A stretch of 19,472 bases of DNA. Source: a virus. The position numbers and the translations under genes are program-made. The notes beneath the pieces are model-generated. The model had not been told where the DNA came from, did no database searches, and saw only the letters and a list, made by a program, of their open reading frames with translations. The stretch lies in UHGV virus genome UHGV-0294315, one strand, 5' to 3'. Shown in pieces: positions 2,127 through 6,164 of the stretch (positions within the stretch are counted from its first letter, which is position 1; each line of letters begins with the position of its first letter).

Positions 2127-3503
2127 TCATACGTCAGCCCCTTGTGCATATCGTCTGCCACGCGCAGCAGGTGCATTTGATGATGTGCAAATCTGTCTGG
2201 CTTCATCCTGGTCACAGGCAACAAAGTGTCCGTTGCAGAACCGCTGGTAAACCGTACCAAGCGAGCCAAAACGGTTTTTCGTTACGATGATTTCAGCAAA
2301 TGGCGCGGCGCTACTGTTCTCGTCATATACCGCTTCCCGATAGAGCATGATGATTGAGTCTGCGTCCTGTTCAATGCTTCCTGAATCACGCAAATCTGCG
2401 TTTGTCGGGCGTTTGTTTGGTCGCTTCTCAACATCGCGCGAAAGCTGACTCAGGGAGATAACCGGTGTTTTCAGGTCTTTCGCCATCGCCTTCAGGCTTC
2501 CGGAGATGTGAGCAATTGCGAGGTCGTTGCGGTCTGCTTTCGGCTTCTCAATCAGGCCAAGATAATCCACCATGATTAGTGACAGGTTTGGATTTTCCTG
2601 TTTGTGCCGCTCTGCAATTGAGCGAATTTCTTCGACCGATAACCGCGAGGCATCGACTACCCATACATCCAAATCTGCAAGCTGACTCATGCCGTTAGCA
2701 ACACGCGCCCAGCCTTCGTCATCCATCGATGCAGGATTTCGCAGCACGCTAACCGACATCCTCCCGGCGTTGGCAATACTTCGCTCTGCAATCTGCAATG
2801 CGCTCATTTCCATTGAGAAAATCAATACCCCGCGCCGGACGTCAGAACCAGGAATAACGCGGCTTGCAACGCCTTCGGCAATCTTAAGCGCCAGTTCGGT
2901 TTTCCCCATACCAGGACGAGCAGCGATTATCACAAAGTCTTCTGCGTTCATCCCTCCGGTGATGGCATCAAGTTCTTCGATTCCGGTCTTCAGGGTATCT
3001 GACTCTTCTCCGTTCCTCAGACGCCTGTCAAGCGTGTCAGTGTAGTCAGTGATGATTTCCCCTAACCGCACCGGTTTAACCTCGTCACGGGGCTTTCTGA
3101 TGGCTGAGAGACGCTTTACAAGCTCATCCATCGCCTGACTCGATGCGTCGATGGTTCCGCTCCGAATTGGTTCACGCATTTCATCCATGATTTCCAGCAC
3201 CAGACGGCGGTGATAGTTATCCGCGACCATTCCGGCATATCCCTTCAGGTTTGCGGCACTCGGGCAGTTTTTGCTGGTCATCAGGATTGACGTGAAATGC
3301 TCCTCTCCGCACGCCTCGGCAACCATCAGCGCGTCGATTAGGTTTCTGTTTCTCGCCTGCTTGCGGATAACCTCGAAGGCTTTCCGGTAGAGCGGAATTG
3401 AAAACGCTTCCGGCTCAAGCGTTGCCAGAACGTCACTGGCAGTCGGTGTTAATCCACCAATCAGCAGGCCACCGATAACGCTCGCTTCGATATCCTGTCT
3501 CAT
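2127..3503 (-). CDS. Replicative DNA helicase, DnaB family (phage-encoded, P22 gene 12-like)
   Basis: 458 aa with DnaB N-terminal domain, Walker A ARPGMGKT, and the SLSQLSR motif. Start overlaps the O-like stop (ATGA). Confidence 0.85.
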
Positions 3504-4447
3504 GCAATCCCCCTGTCTGCAAACTTCCCTTCCCGAACTCCCGTTAACGAATCTTCCCTCAGCAGGTAATCAAAATCTGCCGTCCAGCCCGTGTCGTTGT
3601 CTCCGAAGTAAAACGGCTTGGCCTGATGCACAAACGCCCTGACATACGCTCTGAAACCGTCCACGTTTGGCGTTTTCAGTTGCGGGATGATTTTCTTCAG
3701 GCGGCGTTTGCGTTTCTCGTTGACCGCAACAGCGTGTGGCAGTCTGTCACCGACTTCGGTGTTGTAGGCGTTCAGGAAGGATTCGTAGTCGATTCGTTCT
3801 GCCTTGCGACGTTCAGGTTTAACCTGCCCATCGCCGCCCCCATTGGGGGGTAGGGGGGTATTATTTATATTCTTGTTAATACCTTCTTGTTCATGATGTG
3901 CGGTTGTTTGTGCGGCTTCATGTGCGCTTTCATGTGCGGCATGTACGCTGAAAGCCGCGCCATTACTGGCTTCATCATGTGCGGCATCATGTGCGGTTGT
4001 TTGTGCGGCTTCATGTGCGGGTGAATTGTCCATTTTTTGAGCGTATTCATGATAATTTGTGATGGTGATCACACGACCTTTTTGCTTCTCTCCATCAATG
4101 GAGATCATCCCCTCTTTCACAAAAACCTGAAGCATCCGCTCAACCTGATCACGGCTTGCTGGCTTGCCATGTCTGTCGCATAACTGAAGACCTAAATCAG
4201 CTGCTGTCACAACCAGTTGACCGGGTTGCAGATGCCATTCATGACCTTTGAAATTCGCTTTGTATGGCTTTCTGGCGGCATTCAGGAGAAGGTTTTCCCA
4301 CAGGGTGCGAAGATAAACATCTTTCGCCCATGACTGTTTCAGAATGCTCCGGTACAACGGAATGTAACCAGTTTTCTGGTTCTCCATCCTGTTGCTCCTG
4401 CGCTCGTGTGCGGCGCTGAAATCGTAGATTTTTGCTGTATTGCTCAT
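3500..4447 (-). CDS. Replication initiator, lambda O / P22 gene 18-like, with internal origin
   Basis: N-terminus [13 protein letters not shown] resembles lambda O (MTNTAKILNF...). Internal His/Ala-rich peptide repeats are encoded by the DNA iterons. Sits directly upstream of the helicase gene. Confidence 0.75.
3859..4021. repeat. Putative origin of replication: iteron array plus AT-rich segment inside the O-like gene
   Basis: About nine copies of (C/T)ATGTGCGG(C) at 9-12 bp spacing between 3893 and 4021, including a near-identical ~35-bp direct repeat (3892-3926 vs 3986-4021). Adjacent AT-rich stretch 3859-3885 and a G-run at 3845-3858. Confidence 0.6.
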
Positions 4448-4449
4448 AA

Positions 4450-4722
4450 CTACCTGCCTTGACGAAAGACCTTAAGAACATCGTTAAACTGACTTACGGA
4501 TATGTCTTCTTTGAGAAGCTTTTCCAGAAATGCGTTTGGAATGAACGTATATCCCTCCTCTTTTGGTAGAGACGGGAGCAACGCCCTCGCCTCAGCCTTC
4601 AGAAGCTCAGTTCTGGCAACTTTCACAAAAGAGATTTGAGTTCTTTCATCAATGGAACGAAGGAAGCGCAAACGCTTAGCTTCTTTGTGTGTATCAGGTG
4701 GATTAAAGCCTTTGTTTCGCAT
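4450..4722 (-). CDS. Hypothetical 90-aa protein between cII and the O-like gene
   Basis: Start chosen at the internal ATG 4722 (RBS GAGGT, 6-nt spacing); the longer track ORF would overlap cII. Charged, helical-looking sequence MRNKGFNPPDTHKEAKRLRFLRSIDERTQ.... No family recognised. Confidence 0.45.
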   Translation of the reverse strand: MRNKGFNPPDTHKEAKRLRFLRSIDERTQISFVKVARTELLKAEARALLPSLPKEEGYTFIPNAFLEKLLKEDISVSQFNDVLKVFRQGR

Positions 4723-4727
4723 ATAAT

Positions 4728-4797
4728 TACCTCGTTGGATGTTGTTAAAATTCCATTTGTATTTGATCAGAACGCTCGGTTGCCGCCGGGCGTTTTT
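4728..4797 (+). ncRNA. oop: oop-like antisense RNA with intrinsic terminator, overlapping the cII 3' end
   Basis: Plus-strand CGCTCGG-TTGCCG-CCGGGCG hairpin plus TTTTTTATT at 4769-4797 matches the lambda oop terminator as remembered. Possible -10 TATAAT at 4722-4727. The 5' end is approximate. Confidence 0.5.
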
Positions 4798-5038
4798 TAT
4801 TGGTGAGAATCGAAGCAACTTGTCGTGCCAATCGAGCCATATCGTCGTCAACGACGCCCCATTCAAGAACAGCAAGCAGCATTGAGAACTTTGGAATCCA
4901 GTCCCTCTTCCACCTGCTGATCTGCGACTTATCAACGCCCACAGCTTCCGCTGTCTTCTCAGTTCCAAGCATTGCGATTTTGTTAAGCAACGCACTCTCG
5001 ATTCTTAGAGCCTCGTTGCGTTTGTTTGCACGAACCAT
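4745..5038 (-). CDS. cII: Transcriptional activator CII
   Basis: From the internal ATG: MVRANKRNEALRIESALLNKIAMLGTEKTAEAVGVDKSQISRWKRDWIPKFSMLLAVLEWGVVDDDMARLARQVASILTNKKRPAATERSDQIQMEF, essentially lambda CII (97 aa). The track's 5' extension to 5125 is not used. Confidence 0.9.
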   Translation of the reverse strand: MVRANKRNEALRIESALLNKIAMLGTEKTAEAVGVDKSQISRWKRDWIPKFSMLLAVLEWGVVDDDMARLARQVASILTNKKRPAATERSDQIQMEF

Positions 5039-5096
5039 ATGTAAGTATTTCCTTAACAAATAAGAAGTTATGCGCACCAACTGATGCGCGTTGTAT

Positions 5097-5140
5097 TCCC
5101 GCATTTCGGCGGGAATGAGGACCATGACTGTTAAAGAGCG
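5097..5140 (-). promoter_or_regulatory. nutR-like site (boxA plus boxB hairpin) between cro and cII
   Basis: On the minus strand: CGCTCTTTAACA (boxA, rrn-like), then 14 nt, then TCCCGC-CGAAAT-GCGGGA hairpin. The same boxA/boxB pair recurs at nutL. Confidence 0.55.
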
Positions 5141-5146
5141 GTGTTA

Positions 5147-5341
5147 CTATTTGTTTTTCTTGTTGCTTGGGAAAGGACGAACTTCCTCTCCAATCACACT
5201 GCCATCAGGCTTTACCGTAACCATAATGTTACGGCCTGCCAGAATGGCCTTGCTGATAGCGCACTGGATTACACCAAAGTCACTGGCTGCTTTAGCCTGT
5301 CCATGGATTTTGGCGTAATCGGCAAGTGTCATTCGAATCAT
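5147..5341 (-). CDS. cro: Cro repressor
   Basis: [64 protein letters not shown] aligns with lambda Cro along its length. Start chosen at ATG 5341, which sits 6 nt after GGAGA; the track's GTG at 5347 abuts the RBS. Confidence 0.8.
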
Positions 5342-5371
5342 ATGCACTCTCCGTTATTAACCATGAACAAA

Positions 5372-5447: not shown

Positions 5448-6164
5448 ATGGAAAATAAAAAATCACTGACGACAGAACAGCTCGAAGACGCTAAGCGGCT
5501 TAAGGCTTTGTATGAGTCAAAAAAGAAAGAATTGGGAATAACCCAATACTCAATCGCTGATGAACTGGGTATCACCCAAGGAGCGGTAGGGCATTATCTT
5601 AATGGCAGAAACGCGCTAAACGTTGAGGTCGCATCTGGTTTTGCACGTTTGTTGCAAGTCTCAATTGCTGATTTTAGCCAGTCAATTGCTGCCAAGGTTG
5701 CAGAACAGGCAGAAAGCCTTAAGAGCGATGCCAACGTAAGGTATGCAGGGGAATACAGAGCAGGAAAGAGGTATCCGGTGTTAAGCAGTATCCAGGCTGG
5801 CTCGTGGTGTGAAGCATGCGAACCATACACCATTAAAGACATAGATGTTTGGCTTGAGTCTGACGCGCATATTCAAGGCAATGCGTTCTGGCTTAAAGTG
5901 GAAGGTGATTCAATGACGGCACCGGTTGGGTTAAGCATTCCAGAGGGAACATTCGTTCTTTTCGATACCGGAAGGGAGGCGATCAACGGCAGCCTGGTCA
6001 TAGCAAAACTTTCTGACTCTAACGAAGCAACATTCAAGAAGCTGATAATCGACGGCGGAAATAAATACCTCAAGGGACTTAACCCTGCATGGCCTCTCGT
6101 GCCAATCAATGGAAACTGCAAGATTATAGGCGTTGCAATTGAGACAAAACTAAGGCTGGTTTGA
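5448..6164 (+). CDS. cI: CI-type prophage repressor (HTH N-terminal domain plus S24 LexA-like autocleavage domain)
   Basis: N-terminus LTTEQLEDAKRLKALYESKKKELGITQ resembles lambda CI; C-terminus FWLKVEGDSMTAPVGLSIPEG...ATFKKL...NGNCKIIGV resembles lambda CI / P22 C2. No Shine-Dalgarno upstream, consistent with a leaderless PRM transcript. Confidence 0.9.
   Translation: MENKKSLTTEQLEDAKRLKALYESKKKELGITQYSIADELGITQGAVGHYLNGRNALNVEVASGFARLLQVSIADFSQSIAAKVAEQAESLKSDANVRYAGEYRAGKRYPVLSSIQAGSWCEACEPYTIKDIDVWLESDAHIQGNAFWLKVEGDSMTAPVGLSIPEGTFVLFDTGREAINGSLVIAKLSDSNEATFKKLIIDGGNKYLKGLNPAWPLVPINGNCKIIGVAIETKLRLV

Follow-up and report, generated by a model that had tools for sequence, protein, structure and literature searches.

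A probable pO-oop-tO unit beside a phrog_2519 gene

The region downstream of cII in a phage genome of 19,472 nt (UHGV virus genome UHGV-0294315; the whole of this stretch is called the window below) is very probably a pO-oop-tO unit of a CUS-3-type phage that lies beside a real gene of the phrog_2519 family, with the promoter pO on the start codon of that gene. This reading is carried by homology to lambda oop, by the conservation and covariation of the terminator, by the invariance of a block that holds the -10 hexamer, and by coding selection on the small gene. As judged from these comparisons, the oop unit is an ordinary one, and what lies next to it is a real small gene in a variable slot.

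By its similarities, the window is a CUS-3-like phage (lambdoid, and a relative of the P22-like Lederbergvirus phages). Over bases 4300–5100 it is 99.3% identical to CUS-3 (a P22-like phage of E. coli K1) and 98–99% identical to phages Gally, JEP4 and HF4s. About 50 Stx2a-converting phages share the segment 4300 to ~4807, and 279 of 5426 complete E. coli genomes (~5%) contain 4440–4810 at almost full length; in the prophages of E. coli RS218 and ATCC 11775, this stretch is 100% identical. The gene block consists of cI on the plus strand (5448–6164) and, all on the minus strand, cro (5147–5347), cII (4745–5038, 97 aa; Pfam Phage_CII, 5e-48), the 90-aa ORF (4450–4722), an O-like replication initiator (3500–4447; Pfam Phage_rep_O, 3.4e-15; phrog_345, 2.2e-100) and a DnaB-like helicase (2127–3503). 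Alignment of the O-like initiator with lambda O shows that its N-terminus is homologous to MTNTAKILNF of lambda O.

Homology to lambda OOP

According to the alignment of the plus strand of the window with the lambda cII-O region (J02459), positions 4751–4802 are identical to the 3′ part of lambda oop at 48 of 52 positions, with the entire terminator included. Upstream of this segment, lambda GTCATAAT-GACTCCT-GTTGATAGATCCAG is aligned with GCATATAAT-TACCTC-GTTGGATG of the window, and the -10 hexamer, the start G of GTTG and the terminator are found at homologous positions in both. An 11-nt segment (ATAGATCCAGT), which is the 5′ arm of the first stem-loop of lambda oop, is absent from the window. 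A first-pass annotation of this DNA had suggested a lambda-oop-like antisense unit over the 3′ end of cII, with alignment to lambda as one way to check it; apart from the lost 11-nt arm, the alignment and the conserved terminator tO support the suggestion.

We infer the 5′ end of the RNA (G4734) from the position of the -10 hexamer and from the GTTG start in lambda, and the 3′ end is placed in the T-run at 4793–4801, which gives a predicted oop-like antisense RNA of ~65–68 nt on the plus strand (4734–4800). The predicted fold (calculated for ~67 nt) has -21 kcal/mol, with z = -3.1 against shuffles, and the family consensus of the oop-like RNA contains no conserved 5′ helix. Because the 5′ arm of lambda is absent, no structure is predicted for the 5′ ~35 nt, and the two-hairpin architecture of lambda (a 5′ stem-loop plus the terminator) is not found in the window; with the 5′ stem-loop missing, the stability or processing of the RNA may differ from that of lambda OOP.

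Related RNAs have been reported from other phages: P22 oop is a 63-nt RNA, antisense to the 3′ end of c1/cII, that was detected by RNA-seq (PMC13397905), OOP-BTP1 RNA was detected by RNA-seq in the P22-like prophage BTP1 (PMC7067206), and a review from 2025 includes OOP under both lambda and Stx phages (PMC12197685). P22 oop (GAUUGAUCCAG..., PMC13397905) differs from the window in its terminator stem and keeps a lambda-like 5′ segment that is absent from the window; P22 is not among the 57 phage records that contain the 90-aa ORF (see below). Since P22 and L104 (one of the relatives of the window) both retain the 5′ segment, the 5′ stem-loop looks variable rather than defining for OOP units.

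Like the unit in the window, lambda OOP is convergent with pR and overlaps the last ~17 codons of cII, in the same position and orientation; in both units the -10 lies at or beside the start codon of the gene that follows cII, and the predicted start of the RNA is the G of GTTG 6–7 nt downstream (PMC3985674). The two units differ in length (~65 nt predicted in the window versus 77 nt in lambda), in the -10 hexamer (a perfect TATAAT versus CATAAT), in the -35 (weaker in the window) and in the gene that carries pO, which is the 90-aa ORF in the window and O in lambda, where there is no 90-aa gene between cII and O. The putative pO of the window is 275 bp further from O and its iterons than pO is in lambda. 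At the sequence level, we found the position in the cII tail, the lambda homology, a terminator under selection and the -10 placement that belong to a lambda-type pO-oop-tO unit, and we classify the unit as an orthologue of lambda OOP, with a predicted transcript of ~65 nt that lacks the 5′ stem-loop of lambda. Searches against Rfam gave no family at gathering score in the entire window, and a permissive scan of 4600–5150 gave only chance-level, terminator-driven matches (MicC and His_leader, E near 1); as Rfam seems to contain no oop family, this null result is uninformative either way.

The terminator tO and the cII tail

The terminator scan identified a plus-strand hairpin at 4769–4798 (stem 4769–4780/4785–4796, loop TGCC at 4781–4784, T-run 4793–4798), with a stem of 12 bp followed by T-rich sequence, which sits in the last ~17 codons of cII. 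A plus-strand terminator inside the 3′ end of cII had been noted in the first-pass annotation, and the 12-bp stem found by the scan at 4769–4796 is in line with it. For comparison we used 13 non-redundant relatives with ORFs 51–80% identical to that of the window. In an alignment of the closer relatives, a Stx2a phage and lambda, 95.5% of the cells of the tO stem are paired, a value that none of 500 shuffles reached, and pairing falls to 38–55% when the partner is slid. Compensatory changes are seen at two pairs in the closer-relative alignment, and the stems of L004, L101, L103 and L104 differ in sequence yet are fully compensated. The divergent stems (GAGAGUCCGUAUCUGU/GCAGGUACGGACUUUU in L101, ACGUCCGGU/GCCGGACGU in L103 and GAGUCGUCGG/CCGGCGACUU in L104) are all GC-rich, paired and followed by a U-run.

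Conservation in tO extends to three U·G or G·U pairs, which are C·A mismatches on the cII-sense strand; the T-run after the hairpin is found on the plus strand only. Together these two features argue that selection has acted on the hairpin as an RNA element of the plus strand. The synonymous sites of the cII tail codons CGC CCG GCG GCA ACC GAG CGn are almost frozen, despite the fact that the upstream parts of cII are of several unrelated types.

The encoded tail (KKRPAATERSDQIQMEF) is itself conserved as protein across the cII types, which would be expected if the hairpin at 4769–4796 were kept for the C-terminal tail of CII, or as a structure that stabilises the cII mRNA at its 3′ end, and were not an oop terminator at all. 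We consider this very unlikely, given that the synonymous sites of RPAATER are frozen too, that changes in the stem are matched by the partner base, sometimes at the cost of a residue (A to V in L004), and that the conserved U·G pairs are mismatches in the cII mRNA. The plus-strand T-run, and the preservation of both hairpin and U-run in L101 and L104, where the stems differ, point the same way, i.e. to an oop terminator.

The putative promoter pO on the ORF start codon

The putative -10 hexamer of pO, TATAAT at 4722–4727 on the plus strand, aligns with the lambda pO -10 CATAAT, and its first T lies opposite the A in the ATG of the 90-aa ORF, so that the hexamer does lie at the start codon of the ORF, as the first-pass annotation had it. 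The candidate -35 (TGGATT, 4699–4704, plus strand, 17-bp spacer) is weak, with 3/6 matches to the consensus, and aligns with the lambda pO -35 TTGAGT; an alternative is GTGGAT (4698–4703, plus strand) with an 18-bp spacer. There is no extended -10 at pO. With five occurrences of TATAAT in the window against 8.5 expected, the hexamer by itself is no more frequent than chance would give, and the pO site went unreported in the consensus promoter scan, because the best -35 matches at just three of six positions. The case for the promoter therefore rests on homology and conservation.

As for conservation, 11 ungapped family sequences share only 4 of 86 invariant third codon positions, and the sole invariant run of at least 6 nt in these sequences is AATTATATGCGAAA, which on the plus strand is the 14-nt block TTTCGCATATAATT (4715–4728) that holds the -10 and the complement of the ORF start codon. 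The block is unchanged in L101–L104, where the ORF is 51–62% identical. Two of the four invariant third positions are in the putative promoter: that of codon 2 (CGA) lies in the spacer upstream of the -10, and that of codon 8 (CCA) lies at the -35, the TGG of which is the complement of this codon. The pattern is what would be expected of a promoter embedded in a gene start. Translation-initiation constraints could contribute, as the block spans the spacer between the Shine-Dalgarno (SD) sequence and the ATG, the ATG itself and codons 2–3, and its invariance is confounded with translation initiation.

Taken to the extreme, the TATAAT block would be kept for initiation of ORF translation only, and the oop RNA would either not exist or come from another promoter. 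The extent of the block, the weak -35, the silent scan and the chance-level frequency of TATAAT are all compatible with such an explanation, which we nevertheless find quite unlikely. A covarying, strand-specific terminator on the plus strand, 35–40 nt downstream of the predicted start, needs transcription from nearby, and between 4450 and 4769 there is no other conserved -10-like element from which it could come. The block also aligns with the experimentally defined lambda pO -10 and GTTG start (PMC3985674), and A/U-rich spacers are not normally conserved base for base at saturated synonymous sites.

Another possible source of antisense RNA would be a second lambda-like pO at the start of O (~4421–4450), giving a longer RNA of ~350 nt that spans the 90-aa ORF and ends at the same terminator. 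The O start region of the window (TTTTTGCTGTATTGCTCATAAC) does resemble TTTTTGCTGTATTTGTCATAAT at the lambda O start/pO; against this, its -10-like hexamer, CATAAC, lacks the critical final T, the position is unconserved (it reads CATCG in other family members) and the promoter scan is silent there, making a second promoter extremely unlikely and leaving the pO at 4722–4727 as the preferred source.

In lambda, a pO- mutation in the -10 is 2 bp away from O's first codon (PMC3985674), and the lambda -10 CATAAT includes CAT, the complement of the O start codon. The Klebsiella phage 2b LV-2017 has CATAAT on the start codon of the gene after C1, followed by GTGAATTGATCCAG and a hairpin; this phage has the same O type as the window, but the gene after C1 is an unrelated gene of 265 aa. 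With the same layout of -10 and start codon in lambda and in the Klebsiella phage, the coincidence of promoter and start codon appears to be ancestral and general, and not peculiar to this DNA.

The SD sequence of the 90-aa ORF (GAGG, 4730–4733, minus strand), which is kept as GAGG or GGAG across the ORF family, lies between the -10 and the predicted +1. The latter, G4734, is 12 nt upstream of the ORF ATG on the opposite strand. With this arrangement, the predicted RNA would find its complement in the cII tail and the cII-ORF intergenic region, not in the SD sequence or the coding part of the ORF. The earlier picture of an RNA that overlaps the start of the ORF thus needs to be revised: what overlaps the ORF is promoter DNA alone, with the -35 in codons 7–9 and the -10 placed on the ATG and its preceding spacer.

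Proposed mode of action

By analogy with lambda OOP, we propose the following. A sigma-70 promoter (-10 at 4722–4727, weak -35 near 4699–4704) would start a plus-strand RNA of ~65 nt near G4734, and this oop-like RNA would end at the intrinsic terminator at 4769–4798. The RNA would pair with the pR transcript from the last ~17 codons of cII into the cII-ORF intergenic region, where RNase III, as with lambda OOP, may cut the duplex, so that CII synthesis would fall and the decision would be biased towards lysis. As in lambda, RNA polymerase at pO would also meet transcription from pR head-on, which may reduce the transcription that reaches the replication genes. The 90-aa ORF would be a gene of the pR operon with its own SD sequence, translationally coupled to the O-like initiator, and would fill a variable cassette slot between cII and O. 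Its start would carry pO because pO always lies on the start codon of the gene after cII (O in lambda).

The 90-aa ORF is a gene

Codon-level comparisons indicate that the 90-aa ORF (4450–4722, minus strand) is a real gene under strong purifying selection. For its frame, pairwise dN/dS (Nei-Gojobori, with unsaturated synonymous sites) is 0.03–0.14; of the other five frames, four have mostly dN/dS >1 and one antisense frame has 0.15–0.35. Differences from the window are distributed ~15:15:50 over codon positions 1:2:3. The length of the ORF is 90–93 aa in relatives down to 51% identity (the exceptions are two 86-aa variants with a small N-terminal deletion), and residues 1–90 match phrog_2519 at E = 1.9e-57 over profile positions 1–90 of 90. 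In 18 loci of divergent homologues, the same order is found, i.e. cII, a gap of 20–28 nt, the ORF and an O-like gene, followed, where the contig extends, by a DnaB-type helicase or a lambda-P-type loader. Low dN/dS, the kept length and full-length PHROG membership together make the 90-aa ORF a real gene.

The first-pass annotation had left open whether the ORF is an accessory insertion or not a real gene, and had named synonymous-site analysis and conservation in related phages as checks. The former is in favour of coding (dN/dS 0.03–0.14), and the latter finds length and synteny kept down to 51% identity. Of the two options, that of an accessory insertion is the one that fits, as the ORF is a real gene by selection, length and phrog_2519 membership and behaves as a cassette (see below), and the option that it is no gene falls away. 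So the extra gene between cII and O that lambda was said to lack is indeed there, in the form of this phrog_2519 member.

We also considered that the ORF might be nonfunctional, either a decaying 5′ remnant of an O-like gene left after module exchange or a chance ORF. Three weak matches place residues ~55–88 at the start of the O winged helix, both junctions of the ORF resemble the lambda O start region, and the CUS-3 GenBank record leaves the ORF unannotated. A decaying or chance ORF is nonetheless exceedingly improbable, in view of dN/dS of 0.03–0.14 with changes concentrated at third positions, of a length held at 90–93 aa down to 51% identity, of a conserved SD sequence and coupled stop/start, and of full-length membership in a PHROG; moreover, no full-length parent protein was found among 1.84 billion representatives, and the similarity to O is not significant. 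An ancient origin of the ORF from a fragment of O, which has since become a gene, is conceivable.

At the junction of the ORF stop and the O start (AGG TAG TT ATG, 4445–4455, minus strand), the putative ribosome-binding site of O lies in the last codons of the ORF. In eight family members, synonymous sites of CGT CAA GGn AGG TAG, which is followed by 2 nt and ATG, are nearly invariant. In L101–L103 the ORF stop and the O start share 4 nt; in the window they are 2 nt apart. The conserved junction and the 4-nt overlaps suggest that translation of the ORF is coupled to that of O.

Two other arrangements of the frame were rejected. A -1 frameshift that would fuse the ORF to O was dismissed: O is in the -1 frame, but upstream of the O ATG this frame stays open for just 8 codons, and an X XXY YYZ slippery site is missing there. 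An N-terminal extension of the ORF (181-aa ORF at 4450–4995; database proteins P0001, P0002 and P0035, of 120–164 aa) was dismissed because other members have in-frame stops in the intergenic region, e.g. TAG in L003. Among species-representative genomes, the ORF is found at only two loci.

Possible functions of the phrog_2519 protein

Sequence and fold searches gave no significant relative of known function for the 90-aa protein. NCBIfam gave no match, and the only PADLOC defence-profile match (JetB/MukE-like, E = 0.021, 13 bits) was taken as chance, as was the single match of the PDB sequence search, to a major head protein (E = 0.74). An exhaustive HMMER profile search of 1.84 billion representatives returned 15 proteins, none of which is a full-length initiator with an N-terminus of the ORF type; all are small ORFs of the family or fragments, except two long repeat proteins. 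The AF2 model built from 18 sequences has pLDDT 83.8 (an earlier model from 12 sequences had 57.6) and predicts, with confidence, an all-alpha-plus-hairpin structure, for which the fold searches detected no known fold relative.

The resemblance of the ORF to the N-terminus of O appears in three weak matches: to Pfam Phage_rep_O (PF04492) positions 6–39 (E 0.048, 14.6 bits versus a curated cut-off of 28.7), to phrog_678 (E 0.0089), and by hhalign to O residues 26–58 (probability 0.4%, E 0.13–0.17). In these three independent matches, residues ~55–88 (GYTFIPNAFLEKLLKEDISVSQFNDVLKVF) fall on the O winged-helix domain at its first strand and helices, where the motif G-[YF]-x-x-I-P-N-x-F-[LIM]-x-x-L...[LF]S...F at ORF residues 57–86 lines up with the O/Phage_rep_O PF04492 winged helix. 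At these scores, the resemblance is not significant.

Our best guess, a tentative one that falls short of an even chance, is an accessory factor, small and helical, that belongs to the replication module and modulates either the O-like initiator itself or the expression of that initiator, a guess drawn only from the fixed synteny, the coupling to O and the weak motif resemblance. A more specific reading, which we regard as unlikely, takes the phrog_2519 protein as a regulator of the lysis-lysogeny/replication node. It would be small and helical, would perhaps derive from an O-type winged helix, of which the first ~35 residues are joined to a long coiled helix, and would modulate either the O-like initiator or the firing of the origin, with its synthesis set by competition at pO. 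If so, RNA polymerase at pO would cover the ribosome-binding site and start codon of the ORF, and oop output and ORF/O expression would be reciprocally coupled. To what is recorded for phrog_2519, we add purifying selection, a fixed synteny (cII, ORF, O-like gene), putative coupling to O and an AF2 model.

Cassette slot and module exchange

The O N-terminal type of the window is found in 69 phage records, 57 of which carry the 90-aa ORF; a tblastn search that started from a divergent homologue recovered the same 57. The ORF is missing from the phages of Klebsiella, Yersinia and Enterobacter that have this O type. In the two of these phages in which we examined the cII-O slot, it is filled in one case, the Klebsiella phage, by a regulator and in the other, the Yersinia phage, by a KilAC antirepressor together with a hypothetical protein. 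With other genes in the slot next to the same O type, the 90-aa ORF behaves as an exchangeable cassette.

We also surveyed 80 IMG/VR loci with a near-identical ORF for the point at which similarity to the window upstream of the ORF breaks off. The break lies at 4769–4797, inside or just past the terminator, in 32 loci and just upstream of cII (5048) in 14; another 32 have no break within 400 nt, and two, in which the first 25 nt of the ORF were not matched exactly, were left unscored. The pattern suggests that the ORF, pO and the 5′ part of oop travel with the replication module, and that recombination uses the conserved terminator/cII tail as a joint. The cII left by this joint in the Stx2a phages is of the 933W type and ends in the same C-terminal tail. 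The oop terminator/cII tail and the pO/start-codon block both act as conserved joints for swaps of lambdoid immunity and replication modules, and any gene landing after cII inherits pO on its start codon.

These results also bear on existing annotation. The 90-aa ORF is labelled hypothetical protein by PGAP in the E. coli genomes that contain it and is unannotated in the CUS-3 GenBank record. The oop unit is absent from the annotation of CUS-3 and of many Stx2a phage records, and some of these CUS-3/Stx2a records also omit the 90-aa gene or the cII gene.

Variable gene content between cII and the O-like gene

Among the relatives compared, two phages that share the O N-terminal type of the window carry other genes in the gap that separates cII/C1 from O. 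Klebsiella phage 2b LV-2017 (L016, 1117-2001) has a 265-aa putative regulator there, and Yersinia phage vB_YenM_210.17 (L017, 1066-2001) has a hypothetical protein together with a KilAC antirepressor. The junction, which in the window holds the 90-aa ORF (4450-4722, minus strand), therefore behaves as a variable cassette slot. The Klebsiella phage retains a lambda-like pO, which coincides with the start codon of the gene that comes next.

In the Stx2a phage (L002) the oop terminator has the same stem as that of the window and a different, 7-nt loop, and in relative L015 a hairpin differing from the usual oop terminator is found upstream of the 90-aa ORF. One divergent family member (L104, 905-981, minus strand) keeps the lambda/P22-like oop 5' segment GTGAATTGATCCAG alongside the 90-aa ORF; since both are present in this locus, the 11-nt deletion in the oop of the window (5' arm of the first stem-loop of lambda oop) does not depend on whether the ORF is carried.

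Annotation of the 90-aa ORF and cII

The 90-aa ORF is unannotated in the GenBank record of CUS-3 (CP000711.1; L001, locus 3149-3826), and cII is given there as a 381-nt gene (126 aa) that begins at an ATG upstream of the lambda-like start, the one that yields 97 aa. The Stx2a phage (LC487996.1) contains an unannotated 99-aa cII of the 933W type at 3446-3745 (minus strand, C-terminal end TNKKRPVCKTERSDQIQMEF), and in L015 cII is broken into two ORFs of 74 and 84 aa (2446-2924).

In the window, the frame of the 90-aa ORF has no stop for some distance upstream: it runs through the gap before cII and into cII itself, so that the ORF can be read as 181 aa (4450-4995, minus strand), which is why database versions exist that are N-terminally extended (120-123 aa) or fused to cII (164 aa) (P0001, P0002 and P0035). 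We rejected these longer versions as mis-calls or frameshifted assemblies, because other members of the family have in-frame stops in the upstream region.

On the pR transcript, the interval from cro to cII contains an inverted repeat (GCGCA-N8-TGCGC, window 5065-5095), at the place expected for a nutR boxB or tR1 element.

The O-like gene and its partner

In the O-like protein, the C-terminal domain changes together with the partner gene, as seen by comparing L008 (3276-5008) and L009 (559-2231) with the window (2127-4447): where a lambda-P-type gene is next, the C-terminus is lambda-O-like, and where a DnaB-type helicase is next, it is different. Whichever partner is present, the N-terminal half of the protein stays the same, as does the 90-aa ORF upstream of it.

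There are two candidate starts for the O-like gene (window 4385-4447, minus strand). The first, at 4447, gives an N-terminus homologous to lambda O (MTNTAKILNF); the second (MENQK...) lies within the gene, 60 nt downstream, at an ATG with a strong AGGAG in front of it. In related contigs, gene callers are divided between the two (3276 vs 3336 in the loci examined).

Within the gene, iteron-like direct repeats with a period of 12 nt (CATGTGCGG...) form two clusters (window 3890-4032), and this stretch encodes a His/Ala-rich linker of the O-like protein. The clusters are presumably the replication origin.
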